Position numbers and translations under genes: made by a program | NCBI GenBank assembly: GCA_964586775.1 | Contig: CAZPJD010000225.1 | Location: forward strand, 464-64,463 | Origin: an uncultured bacterium | GTDB taxonomy: Bacteria; Lernaellota; Lernaellaia; JACKCT01 | Length of the DNA: 64,000 nt | Reading direction: 5' to 3' | Part shown: piece after piece, positions 17 to 12,905 of the stretch | Numbering within the stretch: position 1 is the stretch's first letter | How the letters are laid out: each line of letters opens with the position of its first letter | The notes under the pieces: generated by a model | What the model saw: the letters and a program-made list of their open reading frames with translations, nothing else | Told to the model about the DNA's origin: nothing | Databases searched by the model: none

Positions 17-1492
17 TCAGGAGCGTGAACAAGATCTGGAGTCAGGTTTCTCCACCCGATACACCGCGAAGCGTCCGTCGCCCGAGCGGAAGACGCGCGT
101 GAACGCGAGGCCCAGTCGCTCGGCGGAGGGCGCGTCGGGCAGACCGAGCACCGGCGCAAAATCCACGGGGTTGTCGGGCTCGTAAGCGAGCCAGCGCGCG
201 CACGGATCGTCGAGCAGCTTTCGCAGGCCGGCCTCGTCGAACGCGCCGCCGGGCCCCGGCGCGGCCAGCACCGCGCGGCCATCGCGCAGATTCGCGTGAA
301 CGAGCAGCCACCCTTGCAGGCTCGTGCCGATCACCACGCGCTCGGGGGCTCGCGGCGTCTCGCGCAAGAACGCGGCCTGCTCCACCGCCCCGCCCGGCAC
401 GGCGAAGCGCGCGTTGTCGGCCAATGTGACGAGCGTCGAGAGCCCGATGAGGATCACCGACATCCCCGACGCGATGAACTTCTCGAACCACCGGCCGTCG
501 AGCCGCCTGGCGAGCTCCGCCGCCGCCTGCGGGATCATCATGACCACGAGCGGCATGACGTACTTGGTCTCGTTCGCGCCCATCGCGCCGCGCAGGGCCT
601 GCGTCTCGAAGACCGCGAAGGTCCACGCCGCGCTCGCCATCAGCGCCCACGCCCGGCGCGCGCGACGCAGCGTGATGAACGCGGCGAGGCCCAGCAACGC
701 CGTGGGCAGCGGCGCGTCATGCGCGAGCACCGCGGGCCACGCGATCGCCCGCTCAAAAAGCGATTTGTCCGCCATGTGGATCGCCGACACGCCCTGCGAG
801 ATGCGCAGGAAGTTCAGCGGATCGCCGGTCCGCGTCCATTGCCACGCGCACCACGTGGCGGGGAACGCCGCGCACGCGGCGACGAAGGCGAGCCCCTTGC
901 TGCGCCCGCGCCATAGCGCGAGCGCGCCGAGAATCGGCAGGGCGGCCCAGATCTCGAAGCGCGTGGCCGCCGCGACGGTGAACGCGAACCCGGCGATGGC
1001 CGCGGGCGCGACGCGCTCGGGATTCGTCCACCACGCGTCCCACGCCAAAAACGCGGCCATGACGATCGCGGCGTAGGGCATCATGTCGAGCCCGACGACC
1101 GAAAGGCGGATGCCGTGAGGGTGCGCCGTGAGCAGCACGAGGGCCAGCACGGCCTCGCGCACGCCGAAGATCCGCCGCGCGAGGAGGGCTACGATCCAAA
1201 ACAGCGCGAATGACGATATGAGCGAGAGCACGCGCGGAGCGAGGATTGGATCGGGAACGGCGGCCATGATCGCGGCGGTGAGGTAGTAGCCGACGGGGCC
1301 GTAGGCGGCGTCGGGCACCACCTCGAAATTCGCGAGCCAACGCTCGACGAAGAGGCCGCGGTCGTAAGCGTTGTGATGAAAGTCGATGCCGTTGTCCGAC
1401 GCGGCGAACACCGCGAGACGCACCGCAACGTAAACGGCGAAGACGACGAACGGCGCGACGCGCCAACCCCGCCAATTCTCGTCCGGCAGCAT
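17..1492 (-). CDS. Polytopic membrane protein, putative GT-C-fold glycosyltransferase (ArnT/PMT-like)
   Basis: 491-aa ORF with ATG at 1490-1492. Many hydrophobic helices fill the first ~380 aa, followed by a soluble C-terminal domain. Sits 19 nt upstream of rfbD on the same strand. The architecture resembles ArnT/PMT_2-type enzymes, but no decisive catalytic motif was verified. Confidence 0.45.
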   Translation of the reverse strand: MLPDENWRGWRVAPFVVFAVYVAVRLAVFAASDNGIDFHHNAYDRGLFVERWLANFEVVPDAAYGPVGYYLTAAIMAAVPDPILAPRVLSLISSFALFWIVALLARRIFGVREAVLALVLLTAHPHGIRLSVVGLDMMPYAAIVMAAFLAWDAWWTNPERVAPAAIAGFAFTVAAATRFEIWAALPILGALALWRGRSKGLAFVAACAAFPATWCAWQWTRTGDPLNFLRISQGVSAIHMADKSLFERAIAWPAVLAHDAPLPTALLGLAAFITLRRARRAWALMASAAWTFAVFETQALRGAMGANETKYVMPLVVMMIPQAAAELARRLDGRWFEKFIASGMSVILIGLSTLVTLADNARFAVPGGAVEQAAFLRETPRAPERVVIGTSLQGWLLVHANLRDGRAVLAAPGPGGAFDEAGLRKLLDDPCARWLAYEPDNPVDFAPVLGLPDAPSAERLGLAFTRVFRSGDGRFAVYRVEKPDSRSCSRS

Positions 1493-5921: not shown

Positions 5922-6725
5922 ATGGCGGTCATCTCGATCACCAATCAAAAGGGCGGTGTCGGCAAAACGACCACGGCGATCAACCTGGGCGCCGGGCTCG
6001 CCCGCAAGGGCCTGCGCGTGCTGATCGTCGATCTCGACGCCCAGTGCAACGCCACGCAGTTCCTGTACCGCCGACTCGAGGATGACGAGCCGGGCGTGTG
6101 CGAGGCGCTGCTCGAGGAACGCCCCCTCGCAAAGATCGTCGTGAAGACCAATGTGGAGGGCCTCGATCTCGCCCCCGCCGGCGAAAGTCTCGCCAACGCC
6201 GATCTCAACCTCGCGAGCCTGATGGGGCGCGAGCGCTACCTGGCGAATCTGCTGGAAGACAAGACCCTGCGCGCGTACGACCACATCCTCATCGACACCG
6301 GCCCCTATCTGGGGCTGCTCACCATCAACGCCTTCGTCGCCTCCGACGCGCTGATCGTGCCGGTGAGCTGCGAATATCTGCCGCTCCTCGGGCTCAAGTT
6401 CCTGCTCGAAACCGTGGACAAGGTGAAACGCAAGCTGCACCCCGATCTCGAGATCCTGGGATTCCTGCTGACCATGGTGGACCGGCGCGAAAAAATCACG
6501 GGCGAGGTCGAGCAGGTGATGGCGAGCCGGTTCGGGGATCGGTTGTTTCAGACCCGGATTCGGATTAATACCAAGCACAAGAGCGCGCCGCACGCCCGGG
6601 AGACGATCTTCCAGTATGAGGGTTCAGCCTCGGGGAAAGGGACGCAGGATTTTGCGGCCCTGACCGAAGAGGTGCTCGCGCGTCTCGATGGAGGCAAGAC
6701 CCGTCATGGCCAAAAAGCCCGGTAG
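5922..6725 (+). CDS. parA: ParA/Soj-family ATPase (orphan; no ParB in the window)
   Basis: 267 aa. Deviant Walker A NQKGGVGKTTT, then LIVDLDAQ and ILIDTGP (Walker B). Soj-like throughout. Confidence 0.9.
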   Translation: MAVISITNQKGGVGKTTTAINLGAGLARKGLRVLIVDLDAQCNATQFLYRRLEDDEPGVCEALLEERPLAKIVVKTNVEGLDLAPAGESLANADLNLASLMGRERYLANLLEDKTLRAYDHILIDTGPYLGLLTINAFVASDALIVPVSCEYLPLLGLKFLLETVDKVKRKLHPDLEILGFLLTMVDRREKITGEVEQVMASRFGDRLFQTRIRINTKHKSAPHARETIFQYEGSASGKGTQDFAALTEEVLARLDGGKTRHGQKAR

Positions 6726-7374
6726 CAAAGGCTTCGATTCCATCTTCGACGCGACCGACGCCAAGTCGGCCAAGTCGGCGCGCGCGCGCCGGACGACCGC
6801 CAAGTCGACCCCGCCGGCCGCGTCCGCCGCGTCTGCCGCCCACGCGGCCGAGGCCAAGCCCGCGAACGGCAACGGCAACGGCAACGGATTCGAGCCCTAC
6901 GAACTCGATCGCTTCTCGGTGGTGAAAACCCTGCTCAAGACGCACGAAGACGAGGTGATCTACCGCAAGACCAAGGAAGACCGCCTGCTCATCACGGGCA
7001 TCTCCCTCGTCGCGGGCGTCGCCATCGGCGCGTTCCTCATCCGCGCTTTGTGCGGTGGCTGCGCGGGAAGCTGGATCTATTCGTTCCTCTTCCGCGTCTT
7101 TTTCTCGCTCATGGTCGGCCTCACGGGCTTCACCATCGCGGCCATGATGGAACTCAACCGCACGCGCTTGCAGGACCTGCTCGCGATCGTCGTGAAGATC
7201 CACGAACAGTTCCGGCTCTTCGACGACGGCGTGTACGACAAGTCCGGCTCGGCGTTTCTGCCCAGCACCTACAAGTTCGTCGGCAGCATCAACGACGACG
7301 AGACCAACTACGCACTTCTCGTTTTGAAGGTCGCCTCGGTCATCACGGCCGTTTTCGTCCTCTTGTTCGTCTGA
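6706..7374 (+). CDS. Membrane protein with a basic ParB-like N-terminal peptide (candidate ParA partner)
   Basis: GGAGG lies 11 nt upstream of the ATG at 6706 (alternative ATG at 6688). Overlaps the parA 3' end by 20 nt. N-terminus is MAKKPGSKGFDSIFD, followed by a Lys/Arg/Ala-rich stretch, a GNGNGNG tract and about 3 TM helices. Confidence 0.6.
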   Translation: MAKKPGSKGFDSIFDATDAKSAKSARARRTTAKSTPPAASAASAAHAAEAKPANGNGNGNGFEPYELDRFSVVKTLLKTHEDEVIYRKTKEDRLLITGISLVAGVAIGAFLIRALCGGCAGSWIYSFLFRVFFSLMVGLTGFTIAAMMELNRTRLQDLLAIVVKIHEQFRLFDDGVYDKSGSAFLPSTYKFVGSINDDETNYALLVLKVASVITAVFVLLFV

Positions 7375-7438: not shown

Positions 7439-9781
7439 ATGACGGATCGCGAAGCGCATTCCGATTCCCCGGCCCGTCGCGCCCCGCGCGCGTTCGGGGT
7501 GTGGTGCGTCGCGACGGGCGTCCTCACCGCGGTACAGCTCGCGCTGCCACTCGTCGGCGTGCCCGGTTACGAGGCCGCCCAAATCCAGACGATCTGGTTC
7601 GCCGTCGCCGCGGGTCACATCGCCATCGCGTGGGCAAGGCATCGCTCGAACACGCCCCTGCTCGCGACCGCCGCGACCGCCGCGCTGGCGACCGCGCTCG
7701 TCTGGCTGGCGTGCGTCGCGGCGCTGTTCGGCGCGGGATTCGCGCGCGGCGCATGCGACGCATCGCGCGACGTGTGGTGGTTTCTCATTCTGCCCGGCCC
7801 GGCCATTGCGCTGGGCGCGGCGTGGGGCGCGTTTCTGGCATCGCTCGGGCTTTCCGGTCGCCGAACGCACCTCGCTTATGTCGCCGTCGTCGCCGTCCAT
7901 CTCGCGTGGGAGCTCGCCGGCATCCGCACGCAGCCGATGACCTTTTCCTACAACGCGCTCCTCGGCTACTTCCCGGGACCGGTGTACGACCGCGCGGTGC
8001 GCATCGGCGCGACGCTTGCCGCCTCACGCGCGCTCGGCCTTTCCGAGGCGACGGCGCTCTTCGCACTGGCGGCCCTCGTCGAAGGAAAGCGCGGGCGAAA
8101 AGCCCTCGCCGCCGCGCCGGTTGCGTCGTTCGCGGCAGGTTTCGTCGCGGCGGTCGCGCTCGCGATCGTCGGACCGACCCTCGACGCCTCGACCGATCGC
8201 GCGAAGATCGACGCCACCCTCGGCGCGATTGCCCGCGGGCCGAACGTGACGATGCACTTCCCCGAGGATACGCCGCCGGACGAGGCGCGGCTGTTGCTCA
8301 TCGACCTCGAGCACCGGTTTACGCGCCAGGCGCGGTGGCTCGGCCTCGCCGAGCCCGAGCCCGTCGATGCGTACTACTACCGCTCGGCCCGCGAAAAGAA
8401 GCGGCTGACCGGCGCGGGCGACACGCAGTGGGCGAGTTGCTGGAACCGCGAGATGCACATGACGATCGAGCGGCCGCCGCACTCGGTTCTCAAGCACGAG
8501 GTCGTGCACGTGCTGGCCGAGCCGTGGGGAATTCCGGGGCTGGGGTTCTCGCGCGTGCTCGGCCTCACCGAAGGGCTCGCCGTCGCGTCCGAGGTCTGGC
8601 GCGAGGACTGGACGATCCCGTATTGGGCCGCCGCGATGAAATCCGTCGGCCGTCTGCCCGATCTCGCCGACATCTCGGGGCCCACGGGCTTCTGGCGACT
8701 TTCCGGCACACGCAGCTACCTCGCGTGGGGCGGGTTCCTCACGTGGCTGCGCGAGCGTCATTCGAACGACGCCATTGCGCGCGTGTATCGCACGGGCGAC
8801 TTTCGCGAGGCGTTCGGCAAGAGCCTTCGCGAGCTGGTGGACGAGTGGGAATCGTCGCTCGATGCGATTCGGGTCCCGCCCGATCTCCTCCGCGTCGCGG
8901 CGTATCGATTCTTCCGACCGTCTCTCTTCGAGGGCCGCTGCGCGCGAACCGTCGGCACGCTGGAAGAAGACGGCGCACGGGCGCTCGACGCGGGGCGCGC
9001 GCAAAAGTCGGTGCGTCTTTTCGCCGATGCGCTCGAACTTTCCGGCGGCGATTCGCGCAACCGGCGCGACTTCATGGCGGCCCTCGTGTCGGCGCGGAGA
9101 CTCGACCAGGCCGAGCGCGAGGCCGCAGAAATCTTCGCCGCGGAGGGCGCGGAGTTTTTCGCGACGCCCGAGCCTGGCAAGCCCGTTCACGGCAATCTGC
9201 TCGCGGCGACGCAGGCCCGGCTCACGCAGGCCGCCCTCGCGTGGCGTCGCGGAGATCGCGAATCCGCGCGGCGGTTTTACGAAGACGTGCGCGCATTCGG
9301 TGTGGGCGACGCGAATCGACGCGAGGCAATCGTGGCGCTTGACGCGCTCGGTTCCGCCGCGATCGAGCCGATGATTCGCCGCTATCTGGTGGAGCCCGAT
9401 GCCGAGGGCGCGCGTTGGCACGATCTGCACGCGGCGCTGGATGCCCGGCCCGATGACGCGGTGGCGCGTTACCTGCTCGGGCGCAGGCTCTACGGCGCGC
9501 GACGGTTTGACGACGCGGTGACGCACCTCGATGCCGCGCTCACGCTCGGTTTGCCGGACGACGCGCTGACGCGCGAGGCGTGGCGCACGCTGGGCCGCGC
9601 ACACTACGAGGCCGGGCGATTCGAGGACGCGGCGGTGGTGTTCACCGAGCGCCGACCCGCGAGTCTGTCGGAGGGTGCGCGCAAAGACGCCGACGAGTGG
9701 ATCGACCGCTGCCTGTTCGCCGCGACGTTCCCCGAAACCGTTTCGATCGAAAACGTCGGTGGAATGGGCGACGACGACTGA
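7439..9781 (+). CDS. Membrane-anchored MA-clan (gluzincin-like) metallopeptidase with C-terminal TPR region
   Basis: 780 aa. About 6 N-terminal TM helices. HEVVH (HExxH) followed by TEGLA (candidate third-ligand Glu), as in Peptidase_MA_2-type proteins. The C-terminal ~300 aa are TPR-like helical repeats. Confidence 0.6.
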   Translation: MTDREAHSDSPARRAPRAFGVWCVATGVLTAVQLALPLVGVPGYEAAQIQTIWFAVAAGHIAIAWARHRSNTPLLATAATAALATALVWLACVAALFGAGFARGACDASRDVWWFLILPGPAIALGAAWGAFLASLGLSGRRTHLAYVAVVAVHLAWELAGIRTQPMTFSYNALLGYFPGPVYDRAVRIGATLAASRALGLSEATALFALAALVEGKRGRKALAAAPVASFAAGFVAAVALAIVGPTLDASTDRAKIDATLGAIARGPNVTMHFPEDTPPDEARLLLIDLEHRFTRQARWLGLAEPEPVDAYYYRSAREKKRLTGAGDTQWASCWNREMHMTIERPPHSVLKHEVVHVLAEPWGIPGLGFSRVLGLTEGLAVASEVWREDWTIPYWAAAMKSVGRLPDLADISGPTGFWRLSGTRSYLAWGGFLTWLRERHSNDAIARVYRTGDFREAFGKSLRELVDEWESSLDAIRVPPDLLRVAAYRFFRPSLFEGRCARTVGTLEEDGARALDAGRAQKSVRLFADALELSGGDSRNRRDFMAALVSARRLDQAEREAAEIFAAEGAEFFATPEPGKPVHGNLLAATQARLTQAALAWRRGDRESARRFYEDVRAFGVGDANRREAIVALDALGSAAIEPMIRRYLVEPDAEGARWHDLHAALDARPDDAVARYLLGRRLYGARRFDDAVTHLDAALTLGLPDDALTREAWRTLGRAHYEAGRFEDAAVVFTERRPASLSEGARKDADEWIDRCLFAATFPETVSIENVGGMGDDD

Positions 9782-9830
9782 CGGTTCGCCCCTTGCCGCC
9801 GCGCGGCCCGTTCGATAACGTCCGAGACGC

Positions 9831-11189
9831 ATGACGACCGAACTGTCGATCGCCCGCGCGCGTGCCCGCGCCATCTGGCTCATCGCGGCGAGCCTCGCGT
9901 TCTTCGCTTGGATCTCGCCCGCGTTCGCGTTGCTGTTCGCCTTTACGACGCTCGTCGATCGCGCCCTCGCCCGCGCCGCCGCGCGCGAACATTCGCGGTG
10001 GATCGCCGCGGGCGCGAGCGCCCTCATGAACCTCGGCGCGATCCTCGCCTTGCACAACCTGCACCGATTCGCCGACGCCCTCGCGGCATGGCCCTCGCTG
10101 ATGGGCTCGGCGCTCAATGAGGGCGGCACCATCGCGGTGCTGCCGATCGGCTGGTCGCTGCTCTTCGCGCAAAACCTCGCCCATGTTCTGGATGTGGCGC
10201 GCGGGCGCGGGCAACCGACCGAGTGCATCCTCGAGCACGCGCTCGCCGCCGTGTTCTTCCCGCGCATGTGGGCGGGGCCGATGGTCGAACCCGTCGCGTT
10301 TGCCGCGCGAATTCGTCGGCCCGAGCGCCTCACCGGCGAACGCCTCGGCCGCGCGATCTGGCACGGCGCGCTGGGCGCGATCAAGATCGTCGCCGTCGCC
10401 GACTACCTCGCGCTCAACATGGTGGACAAGGTCTTCGATCTGCCCACGCTTTTCTCCACAACCGAGGTGGTTTTCGCGCTGGTCGCGAACGCGCTCGTCA
10501 TCGCCGCGATGTGGTCGGGCGCGTGCGACATCGCCGTCGCCGCCGGACTCGTGCTCGGCTTCGACCTGCCGCAAAGTTTCGCGTCGCCCGCCACGGCGAC
10601 GGGTCCGCGCGACCACTGGCGTCGGTTCCTCGCGCCGCTCACGGCCGCGCTTCGCGAGCACGTTTTCCGCCCGCTCGCGGGCGGGCCGAATGCTTCGCGC
10701 CTGCGCCGTGCACTCGCCGCGTTTGCGCCGCCGCTGCTGGTCGGCTGCGTCGTGGGGCCGAGCGAAACCACGCTCGCCTTCGGCGCGTTTGTCGGCGCGA
10801 CGCTGTTCGTCGCGACGCTCTTCGGACGCAAGACCTCGAACGACAAGCCGGGCATCGGCGCGCGCGCGTTCGGATGGGTTCTCACTTTCCTCGCCATGAC
10901 GGTCGCGTGGACGCTCTGGCGTGCGCACGACCTGCAAACCGTTTCCGATCTCGCGTCGATCCTGCCGCTCGGCATCTACGAAACGCCGAACCTGACCGCA
11001 ACCGTGATCGGCGTTTTTTTCGCGTCCCAGGTGGTCGCGTTCGTGCCCGCGCCATGGGTCGCGAAAACCCGCGATGCATTCGCACGTGCGCCCTGGCCCG
11101 TACAGGTCGCGGCGGGGCTCGCGGTGGCGTGGGCGCTTTGGCGCGTGAACGCGGTGTCGGAAGTGCCCTTCGTCTACGAGCGGATGTGA
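9831..11189 (+). CDS. MBOAT-family membrane O-acyltransferase homologue (AlgI/DltB-like), divergent
   Basis: 452 aa, polytopic. LPIGWSLLFAQNLAHVLDVARG...FFPRMWAGPMVEP parallels the AlgI consensus LPIGISFYTFQ..SY.IDVYRG...FFPQL.AGPI.R. DHWRRFLAPLTAALREHVFRPLAGG parallels DFWRRWHISLS.WLRDY.YIPLGG. Confidence 0.7.
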   Translation: MTTELSIARARARAIWLIAASLAFFAWISPAFALLFAFTTLVDRALARAAAREHSRWIAAGASALMNLGAILALHNLHRFADALAAWPSLMGSALNEGGTIAVLPIGWSLLFAQNLAHVLDVARGRGQPTECILEHALAAVFFPRMWAGPMVEPVAFAARIRRPERLTGERLGRAIWHGALGAIKIVAVADYLALNMVDKVFDLPTLFSTTEVVFALVANALVIAAMWSGACDIAVAAGLVLGFDLPQSFASPATATGPRDHWRRFLAPLTAALREHVFRPLAGGPNASRLRRALAAFAPPLLVGCVVGPSETTLAFGAFVGATLFVATLFGRKTSNDKPGIGARAFGWVLTFLAMTVAWTLWRAHDLQTVSDLASILPLGIYETPNLTATVIGVFFASQVVAFVPAPWVAKTRDAFARAPWPVQVAAGLAVAWALWRVNAVSEVPFVYERM

Positions 11190-11195
11190 GGATCG

Positions 11196-11696
11196 ATGCC
11201 GTCGTTTTTCGCCGATCACACCGACCTGGGCATCGGACATGCGCTCGTGACGATGGGCGATGACGACGTGGCCGCCGTCGCCGACATCATGATGGCCTCG
11301 GAGCCCTGGGCAAACTACGGCTACGAACGACGAACCATCGAGGACTTTCTGCACGGCACGATCGAGGCGGGCATGGCGCGCGTGGTGACGCCGTCGGGCG
11401 GCGCGCGCGAGGTCGTCGGCGTGGCGACGGTGCAGCCGGGTTTTTTAGGCGGGCGCTATCTGGAGCTGCTCGCGCTGCGCGCCGACCGGCGCGGGCGCGG
11501 CCTTGGGCGGCGCGTGATCGAGGCGATCTGCTACGAAATGCCCGTCCACATGCGCGACCTGTTTGTGCTCGTCGCCGATTCCAACGCGAAGGCCGTCGCG
11601 TTCTATCGTCACCTGGGATTTCGCGACGTGGGCGAGCTTCCCGGCCTCATCCGCCTCGGAAAAACCGAGCGCCTGATCTGGCTGCGGTTTCGATGA
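11196..11696 (+). CDS. GNAT-family N-acetyltransferase
   Basis: 166 aa. Motif A LALRADRRGRGLGRRVIEA and AVAFYRHLGF. GAGGA RBS. Starts 6 nt after the MBOAT stop. Confidence 0.8.
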   Translation: MPSFFADHTDLGIGHALVTMGDDDVAAVADIMMASEPWANYGYERRTIEDFLHGTIEAGMARVVTPSGGAREVVGVATVQPGFLGGRYLELLALRADRRGRGLGRRVIEAICYEMPVHMRDLFVLVADSNAKAVAFYRHLGFRDVGELPGLIRLGKTERLIWLRFR

Positions 11697-11826
11697 CGAT
11701 GCGAATCGCATCGCCATTGGTGCCCGAACTCACCGGATCGTGCTTTCGCGGGCGGTATTTTGACATGCGTCAAGGCGGCGCCCGGAGGGGAGCGGTACCG
11801 TGCGGGCGTGTTCAGGGAGTCCGGCG

Positions 11827-12225
11827 ATGAGCCACGCACAGCACGCACCCACAGATTCCGCAGCGAATTCTCCGAAGTCGCCCATCCTTGTTTCCTACCG
11901 AAAGACGCCGCTCACCGCCCGTGACGAACAAAAGCTCGCGACCGACATCGGTATTCTCAGGGCATTCACGCATGTGTATTGCCAAAAGCTCCACGGCGCG
12001 AAAAAGGACGACCTGTGCCCCGACTGCGCGGCGCTGCTCGAGTACTCGATCGAGCGGCGCACGCGCTGTCCTCTCGACCCCAAGCCCAAGTGCAAGGAAT
12101 GCCCGGTCCACTGCTACAAACCGGCGCTGCGCAAAAAGATGCAGGACGTTATGCGCGTCGCCGGGATGCACTTCGTCTTTCGCGGACGCGTGGACTGGCT
12201 CGTGAAGTACTTCCTCGCCTCGTAA
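11827..12225 (+). CDS. Nitrous oxide-stimulated promoter (YgbA_NO) family protein
   Basis: Cys pattern YCQKLHG...LCPDC...RCPLDPKPKCKECPVHCYKP...MRVAGMHFVFR matches my recollection of this family. Internal ATG at 11827 of track ORF 11800-12225. Confidence 0.65.
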   Translation: MSHAQHAPTDSAANSPKSPILVSYRKTPLTARDEQKLATDIGILRAFTHVYCQKLHGAKKDDLCPDCAALLEYSIERRTRCPLDPKPKCKECPVHCYKPALRKKMQDVMRVAGMHFVFRGRVDWLVKYFLAS

Positions 12226-12323: not shown

Positions 12324-12599
12324 ATGCGGATCCGGGACTTCGAATGGGACGAAGGCAACGAACTGCATCTCGCTCTCGGGCACGGCATCGAGCCGGAGGA
12401 AGCCGAGGAGGTTCTCGCGTGCTCGCCGCTCGTCCGAAAAACGAAAAGGGGTCACTACGCCGCCTTCGGACGCACCGCCGCCGGTCGCCTGCTGGTGATC
12501 GTGTTCGAATTGCGTGATCGCGGCATCGCGCGGGTCATCACCGGCTGGGATATGACCCGGGCGGAACGACGCTGGTACCAAACCCGCGGAAAGGGCTGA
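12324..12599 (+). CDS. brnT: BrnT (DUF497) ribonuclease toxin
   Basis: 91 aa. FEWDEGNELHLALGHGIEPEEAEEV...LLVIVFELRDRGIARVITGWDMTRAERRWY is typical of BrnT. Only the last 91 codons of track ORF 11979-12599 are used. Confidence 0.85.
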   Translation: MRIRDFEWDEGNELHLALGHGIEPEEAEEVLACSPLVRKTKRGHYAAFGRTAAGRLLVIVFELRDRGIARVITGWDMTRAERRWYQTRGKG

Positions 12600-12602
12600 G
12601 CG

Positions 12603-12905
12603 ATGAAGAAATCGACGTCGACGCGCGTCGCCCAGGACGATGCCGCGGCCTACTACGACCGTCACGGCGTGCTCGGCGACGTGATCGATCGTCCCGTGGA
12701 ATTTGCGCTCGATGAGGAACTGCGGGACCAGATTCTCAAAGGCGAACGAAAGCGCCGCTTGAAGAACGTGTCGGTGAAACTCGATGAGGCCCAAATCGTC
12801 GCGCTGCGGAAAATCGCCACGCTCAAGTCGATTCCCTATCAGACGCTGATCCGACTGTGGCTGGCCGAAGGAATCGCGCGCGAACTGCGCATCTCGAGGA
12901 CGTAG
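12603..12905 (+). CDS. brnA: BrnA antitoxin (RHH/CopG-like)
   Basis: 100 aa. Starts 3 nt after the brnT stop. C-terminal VSVKLDEAQIVALRKIATLKSIPYQTLIRLWLAEGI is the BrnA signature. Confidence 0.85.
   Translation: MKKSTSTRVAQDDAAAYYDRHGVLGDVIDRPVEFALDEELRDQILKGERKRRLKNVSVKLDEAQIVALRKIATLKSIPYQTLIRLWLAEGIARELRISRT

Follow-up and report, generated by a model that had tools for sequence, protein, structure and literature searches.

A conserved histidine is the hallmark of MBOAT enzymes. In DltB, His336 has been termed 'invariant' and His289 'conserved', eukaryotic MBOATs having Asn or Asp at the latter position, and 12 residues line the active-site pocket (PMC11035591). The second signature residue of the family (His, Asn or Asp) lies 30–50 residues upstream of the invariant His (PMC5831804). 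The invariant residue (DltB His336, PatA His315) is required for activity and for tyrosine auto-acetylation (PMC11035591, PMC12148441): in C. jejuni PatA, the universally conserved His315 is needed for the auto-acetylation of the Tyr in a C-terminal FxYxxF motif, the acetyl-Tyr donates to the SGNH partner PatB, and conserved Arg residues line a putative cytoplasmic acyl-CoA pocket (PMC12148441). The sole natural exception reported is mammalian HHATL, whose invariant His has become Leu; it was described as the only known exception, and its acyltransferase activity is doubted (PMC5831804). We found no report of a bacterial MBOAT without the invariant His in the literature searched. Here, we describe such a protein, encoded on contig CAZPJD010000225.1 of an uncultured bacterium of the Lernaellota, of which a stretch of 64 kb (hereafter, the window) was analysed. 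The open reading frame (ORF) at 9831–11189 on the forward strand specifies a protein of 452 amino acids (the window protein) that has the MBOAT fold and lacks both active-site histidines; we consider it, with a probability of about 0.5, to be a non-catalytic MBOAT (a pseudo-enzyme), a bacterial counterpart of HHATL.

MBOAT homology of the window protein

The ORF had been singled out in an earlier note made from the sequence alone; its extent and strand, as well as the segment quoted from it, DHWRRFLAPLTAALREHVFRPLAGG, proved to be exact. The listed start is the first start codon past a stop codon and, therefore, the ORF cannot be extended upstream; the preceding gene ends at 9781. The note had taken membership of the MBOAT family as secure from the retention of the LPIG.S and FFP...GP motifs. 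Both motifs are indeed present, as LPIGWS, the G107 of which is common to 92% of the canonical relatives, and as FFPRMWAGP, where F142, F143, P144, G149 and P150 are invariant in 14 out of 14 aligned sequences.

Curated family models, on the other hand, hardly recognise the protein. Pfam PF03062 (MBOAT) gave no match at E ≤ 1, and the only curated model to match, TIGR04091 (DltB), scored 28.5 bits against a cutoff of 375. The precomputed Pfam field is empty for P0001–P0003, three of the relatives discussed below, while P0004–P0006 match PF03062. A single-sequence phmmer search against PDB returned no matches, so that a profile was needed. Our database search yielded 13 relatives, grading from 83% identity to canonical MBOATs, and the profile made from the alignment of the window protein with its relatives matched DltB (6bug_C) with an E-value of 4.3e-49. 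When the profile of the His-less clade (see below) was compared with 20 canonical MBOATs using hhalign, the probability was 100% (E 5.8e-95, 442 columns). The AlphaFold2 (AF2) model of the window protein has a mean predicted local distance difference test score (pLDDT) of 77.7 and a predicted template modelling score (pTM) of 0.78, the C-terminal tail being modelled with a pLDDT below 50. In a Foldseek search of PDB, the top match of this model was DltB again (6bug_C; E 1.2e-7, TM-score 0.60–0.67), and the significant matches were all MBOATs: DltB, followed by PORCN, HHAT and MBOAT7. The MBOAT homology of the window protein is secure, and it rests on these profile and fold comparisons.

Loss of both active-site histidines, the Asp and most of the pocket

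In the alignment with DltB, His289 is part of the sequence F-W-N-R-W-H and His336 part of G-F-W-H-G. The column of His289 is occupied by Leu267 in the window protein, where 99% of 154 canonical relatives have His; this placement is agreed upon by MAFFT (14 sequences), hmmalign (161+ relatives) and hhalign (clade versus canonical). The earlier note had aligned by eye the His of the W-H-x-S motif with this same Leu, correctly, but had named it as the invariant, catalytic one: the His of RW-H is the secondary, 'conserved' His289. The invariant His336 of the W-H-G motif, a column that is His in 154 out of 154 canonical relatives, was overlooked; the window protein has Val308 there. A third position, that of DltB Asp249 (Asp in 99% of the canonical relatives), is taken by Met227.

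Three options had been offered to account for the Leu: the protein could be a pseudo-enzyme, its catalytic base could have moved, or the manual alignment could be out of register. Of these, the pseudo-enzyme is best supported for the window protein. A register error is excluded by the MAFFT, the DltB-anchored profile and the hhalign alignments. No nearby His qualifies as a relocated base: His262 (five residues upstream of Leu267, and not two as had been noted) is Tyr or Phe in orthologues, and His277 is Ala, His or Tyr, neither being kept even at 83% identity. The hidden Markov model, profile–profile and DltB-anchored alignments alike disagree with placing a neighbouring His at the catalytic position, and there is no conserved His column anywhere in the alignment of the clade.

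We have scored the pocket as the number of matches to the canonical consensus at the 12 DltB pocket positions. Canonical proteins match at 12, the closest His-bearing relative (P0031) at 8, His-less proteins with SGNH partners at 6–9, His-less P0004 at 6 and the window protein at only 2 (W263 and W360). The window lineage, additionally, is without Lys186, Arg153, Asn249 and the first transmembrane helix. What the window protein has kept are W263, R265, R275, K185, R364, FFPxxxAGP and G309. Hence, both signature residues and most of the pocket are lost. The scores constitute a natural graded series, by which two questions become testable: whether the His is strictly needed to load the Tyr shuttle, and what role a non-catalytic MBOAT has in bacteria.

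A small His-less clade descending from an MBOAT–SGNH pair

An exhaustive HMMER search with the clade profile in 1.84 billion 50%-identity representatives resulted in 28,500 MBOAT relatives; 161 proteins, the best 150 of these 28,500 plus earlier matches, were classified. Both histidines are missing only in P0001–P0006 and P0015; all others but P0105 have RWH and WHG. (P0105, the sole other deviation among the classified proteins, is otherwise canonical: its His289 is changed to Tyr (RWY) and the His of WHG is intact.) At the boundary of the clade, the score drops from 475 to 358 bits. Pattern scans of genomes and metagenomes contributed just L010, L011, L012 and the partial L013. The organisms concerned are known from metagenome-assembled genomes only. 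The clade is thus very small: at 50% identity, it amounts to about four clusters out of the 1.84 billion representatives. Public databases annotate relatives as 'MBOAT family protein', 'AlgI' or 'DltB' despite the missing catalytic residues.

The Leu at the His289 column is itself shared by only four of 11 clade sequences (L/L/L/L/M/M/F/F/F/F/F; non-redundant set, L/M/M/F/F/F/F), the others having Met or Phe and none of them His. The His336 column reads V/V/V/A/V/W/C/A/N/N in the 10 clade sequences that cover the site (non-redundant set, V/V/W/C/A/N/N), and the Asp249 column reads M/T/K/E/E/E/T. Such variation at the old active-site columns is expected if these sites are no longer constrained. 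In contrast, the clade hallmark motif YLALNMVDKVFDLPTLFSTTE is invariant at 18 of its 21 positions in an alignment of six clade members whose identity goes down to 33%, and includes six clade-specific residues (K200, L204, T206, L207, T210, T211). A second clade-specific motif, ILPLGIYETPNLT, has I377, L378, I382, P386, N387 and T389 invariant.

The His-less clade is monophyletic in 30 out of 30 neighbour-joining bootstraps and nested amongst canonical MBOATs; there was, therefore, one loss event, inherited by descent. Since independent assemblies, and a coherent clade as a whole, have the same substitutions, the loss of the histidines is not due to chance. Its nearest outgroups are P0031, which has both histidines and is the sister, and then P0016, P0020 and P0026.

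In L001, L004 and L010, two GDSL/SGNH proteins of ~450 and ~375 amino acids are encoded beside the His-less MBOAT, and these pairs are orthologous across the three loci at 41–61% identity; in L004, they lie at 9461–10795 and 10785–11900 on the reverse strand. Downstream of the gene for the sister P0031 comes an orthologue of the larger SGNH protein (~450 aa; 54% identity), which indicates that the clade descends from a standard MBOAT–SGNH pair. The SGNH-partnered members form a grade rather than a clade; the SGNH arrangement is thus ancestral. The SGNH partner of P0031 (L018 7555–8907, forward strand) deviates in block I, with G-A-S for G-D-S, and reads G-T-N-E at block III; its Ser nucleophile and the His of block V are retained.

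The modules of these SGNH-partnered members (subclade B: L010 2037–7255; L001 1010–4471; L004 5103–7990) contain further genes: DUF2334 proteins in L001 and L004, a GxGYxYP putative glycoside hydrolase and an AAT-family acyl-CoA acyltransferase-like protein in L010, and a weak Condensation-domain protein in L004. Their contents hint at a glycan-modification locus. The proteins P0006, which has two SGNH partners, and P0015 belong to subclade B.

The C-terminal tail

The tail of the window protein keeps the Phe and the Tyr of the acyl-shuttle motif; E450 and R451 replace the canonical Phe and Gln, and M452 is the last residue. Every clade member with an intact C-terminus ends in FVYER[MLF], as against FIYFQF in 87 of the 154 canonical relatives. 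The residue directly after the Tyr is Phe in 121 out of 144 motif-matching canonical tails and Glu in three only. The tails of the nearest His-bearing relatives read FVYEQF (P0016, P0020, P0026) and FEYQRF (P0031). The Glu at Tyr+1 and the Arg at Tyr+2 thus occur separately in proteins that have the His, implying that each predated its loss, which weakens the idea of Glu450 as a substitute base.

Selection on the gene

Compared with its 83%-identical orthologues (L007, L011), the MBOAT-like gene has a ratio of nonsynonymous to synonymous substitution rates (dN/dS) of 0.20–0.25. In the same genomes, the ratio is 0.18 for the 780-aa TPR protein encoded upstream (TPR780), 0.11 for the GNAT acetyltransferase encoded downstream, 0.105 for a protein of 219–228 amino acids and 0.07 for a DUF362 protein. 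The MBOAT-like gene is the least constrained of the five, yet purifying selection is clear. With the ORF intact in four assemblies and the long invariant clade-specific motifs, this ratio implies that it is not a pseudogene.

Genomic neighbourhood

The coordinates of the MBOAT-like gene, its motifs and its neighbours are collected in Table 1. A tblastn search with six clade-associated GDSL proteins found nothing in the window at E ≤ 0.1, and neither a DUF2334 gene nor a second MBOAT gene was found in it. A canonical second MBOAT acting in trans from the window is rejected on this ground. Counts from scans for promoters and terminators were at shuffle expectation and so uninformative.

Table 1. 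Features of the His-less MBOAT-like gene and of the genes next to it (positions in the window)
Feature	Position	Strand	Details
MBOAT-fold gene without both active-site His	9831..11189	+	452 aa; hhalign, AF2/Foldseek, dN/dS
LPIGWS, residues 104-109	10140..10157	+	MBOAT core motif kept; MAFFT alignment, 14 sequences
FFPRMWAGP, residues 142-150	10254..10280	+	MBOAT core motif kept
Clade hallmark motif YLALNMVDKVFDLPTLFSTTE, residues 192-212	10404..10466	+	translation checked
Met227	10509..10511	+	DltB Asp249 column
Segment DHWRRFLAPLTAALREHVFRPLAGG, residues 261-285	10611..10685	+	W263, R265, R275 kept
Leu267	10629..10631	+	DltB His289 column ('conserved' second active-site His)
Val308, within GCVVGPSE	10752..10754	+	DltB His336 / PatA His315 column (family-invariant catalytic His)
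Second clade-specific motif ILPLGIYETPNLT, residues 377-389	10959..10997	+	alignment conservation
C-terminal tail PFVYERM, residues 446-452	11166..11186	+	F447, Y449 = acyl-shuttle FxYxxF positions
GNAT acetyltransferase gene	11196..11696	+	166 aa; Pfam Acetyltransf_1 E 1.4e-9; 6 nt past the MBOAT-like stop
780-aa protein (TPR780)	7439..9781	+	TPR matches (Pfam: TPRs only); directly upstream
ParA/MinD/BcsQ-like P-loop ATPase	5922-6725	+	AAA_31, E 7e-52
228-aa protein, no family match	6688-7374	+	start overlapped by the ATPase gene

The gene for the GNAT acetyltransferase adjoins the MBOAT-like gene in the same manner in L007 and L011, and also in L006, a relative at 50% identity (gaps of 3–7 nt, 3 nt in L006). 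The GNATs of the window and L006 are orthologous (60% identity), whereas the context upstream of the MBOAT-like gene differs in L006. Orthologues of this GNAT in three other genomes (49–55% identity) adjoin no MBOAT and, therefore, the link with the GNAT is no more than suggestive. GNAT as a general partner of MBOAT-like genes is rejected, as support ends at the closest relatives. The GNAT orthologues in those three genomes (L015 5001–5525, L016 5001–5537, L017 5001–5525) lie downstream of a conserved, unannotated protein of ~590 amino acids (77–91% identity among the three), with an MMPL/RND-type transporter in between in L015 and L017; in L016, the GNAT is followed by a weak GDSL protein. 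These ~590-aa proteins are unrelated to TPR780.

TPR780 has a hydrophobic multi-helix N-terminus, HEVVH at residue 353 with TEGLA some 20 residues on, and C-terminal TPR repeats; by eye, HEVVH...TEGLA looks gluzincin-like. The gene is found upstream of the MBOAT-like gene also in L007 and L008, not in L006, and is possibly in one operon with it. The genes for the ATPase and the 228-aa protein are syntenic in L007 and on the same strand as those for TPR780, the MBOAT-like protein and the GNAT; together, the five genes may form an operon.

Further downstream (~12327–12905, forward strand), a BrnT-like toxin (BrnT_toxin, E 1.9e-7) and a CopG-type antitoxin (E 1.6e-5), both just under the gathering score, fill the ~700 bp between the YgbA_NO and DUF362 genes. 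The syntenic region in L007 has just 19 nt at this site, and the pair thus looks like a recent toxin–antitoxin insertion. PMT_2/GT-C-type glycosyltransferase-like membrane proteins recur near MBOAT-like genes of the window protein's subclade (subclade A): the match is weak in the window (17–1492, reverse strand) and clear in L006 (6348–7889, reverse strand, and two further genes), where one of them is divergently adjacent to the MBOAT-like gene.

What the His-less protein may do

The window protein descends from an ordinary bacterial MBOAT–SGNH O-acyltransferase that modifies cell-envelope polymers, like AlgI and PatA. The common ancestor of the clade had exchanged both histidines as well as the Asp near them, and its tail had become F-V-Y-E-R-x instead of F-x-Y-F-Q-F; in the sub-lineage of the window, further erosion followed, SGNH genes no longer lie next to the MBOAT-like gene, and a GNAT gene is found downstream of it. 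The window protein is intact and selectively maintained. It would be past His-dependent acyl transfer and perhaps a scaffold, adaptor or conduit, its retained function presumably residing in the invariant clade-specific motifs (NxVDKVFDLPTLFSTTE, ILPLGIYETPNLT, PFVYER) rather than in the former active site. A non-catalytic role is favoured by how far the erosion has gone, by the old catalytic columns varying freely and by the lack of an SGNH gene within 64 kb. At minimum, the best reading of these sequences is that the window protein is a His-independent MBOAT derivative.

Several findings weigh against a pseudo-enzyme and fit an acyltransferase that is still active with a base other than His, in which Tyr449 would be acylated from a cytoplasmic acyl-thioester and the acyl-Tyr passed on to an SGNH enzyme, whose gene is the neighbour of the MBOAT gene in the basal members and would be located elsewhere in the genome of the window. 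All 14 aligned sequences have F447 and Y449, E450 and R451 are invariant in the clade, and the change from YFQF to YER accompanies the loss of the histidines. K185, R265, R275 and R364 are retained, as expected if acyl loading of the tail persisted, along with W263 and FFPxxxAGP; the four basic residues may be among the pocket Arg set described for PatA (PMC12148441). In L001, L004 and L010, both SGNH partners keep GDS in block I, N-D in block III and DxxH in block V, which suggests that the basal SGNH-partnered modules still move acyl groups. Purifying selection fits as well, a dN/dS of ~0.2 establishing that constraint is present while being silent on what is constrained. The base could be, for instance, Glu450, next to the Tyr on the mobile tail, or else a polar residue specific to the clade, such as Asp199, Lys200, Asp203, Glu212 or Arg260. 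The shuttle-like tail and the basal SGNH partners, neither of them visible to the author of the earlier note, are what keeps this explanation alive. For the window protein, we regard it as doubtful nonetheless: the His315Ala mutation abolishes auto-acetylation of PatA (PMC12148441), the Glu and Arg of the tail are not obviously compensatory given their separate occurrence in P0016, P0020, P0026 and P0031, the former active-site columns vary freely in the clade, and in the window protein, only two of 12 pocket residues are left and K186, R153 and N249 are missing, with no SGNH gene in the 64 kb around its gene. With the pocket eroded and no SGNH gene nearby, activity with another base suits subclade B better than the window gene. 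That members of the clade, those with SGNH partners at any rate and perhaps the window protein too, load the C-terminal Tyr without any His is a tentative proposition that we hold to be somewhat improbable; if true, it would be a natural counter-example to the invariant-His rule of MBOATs, and of high interest.

A two-part module is less probable still, and in our view unlikely: the GNAT would provide the acetyl-CoA chemistry and the His-less MBOAT would be its membrane dock or conduit, through which an acetylated lipid-linked or envelope substrate would pass. The 3–7-nt adjacency in the window, L007, L011 and L006 despite differing upstream context, the orthology of the GNATs, the R-x-x-G-x-G acetyl-CoA loop that the sequence of the GNAT has kept, and the fact that SGNH partners are missing exactly where the GNAT is present speak for it. 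The adjacency is, however, limited to closely related genomes, so it could be inherited synteny; the orthologues elsewhere are not beside an MBOAT, and the GNAT next to the L010 MBOAT is of a different type and in divergent orientation. Moreover, the Tyr tail is periplasmic by homology with PatA, beyond the reach of a cytoplasmic GNAT. A decaying pseudogene, or an artefact of sequencing or assembly, would agree with the gene having the highest dN/dS of the five compared and with Pfam MBOAT failing to recognise the product. Yet the ORF runs its full length without interruption, at least four independent assemblies have the same substitutions, the dN/dS is far below 1 and close to that of the neighbouring TPR gene, and the 21-residue motif, like the C-terminal tail, hardly varies among sequences down to 33% identity; we consider this explanation highly improbable and, in effect, refuted.

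Comparison with known systems

The window protein shares its fold and clear homology with the MBOATs of the PatA/PatB, AlgI/AlgJ/AlgX, WssH/WssI and DltB/DltX/DltD systems. In common with these MBOAT–SGNH systems, it has LPIG.S, FFP...AGP, W263, R265, R275 and G309, as well as an F-x-Y tail at the C-terminus, which is homologous to the motif of the acyl-Tyr shuttle; SGNH partners are adjacent in the basal members of its clade and in the His-bearing sister. Unlike them, the clade is devoid of the equivalents of His336/His315, His289 and Asp249 and carries the tail FVYER[MLF], and the window protein has in addition lost 10 of the 12 pocket residues, K186, R153, N249 and the first transmembrane helix; no SGNH gene lies near its own gene within the 64 kb.

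Mammalian HHATL has likewise kept the MBOAT fold and the homologous regions while the invariant His has given way to a hydrophobic residue. The window protein would stand to canonical MBOATs as HHATL does to HHAT. HHATL is eukaryotic and belongs to an unrelated branch, so the loss described here would be independent. It retains the upstream Asp, whereas the clade has lost both signature positions, and there is no counterpart in HHATL to the clade's C-terminal Tyr tail or to the SGNH partners of its relatives.

Finally, DltX has a C-terminal Tyr motif without having a catalytic His of its own and must, therefore, be loaded by another catalyst. It is a microprotein that binds a competent DltB, and a competent MBOAT is not encoded in the window; the carrier-like tail is found here on a full MBOAT fold. 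By analogy, a His-less MBOAT that has kept its tail could in principle be a carrier loaded in trans.

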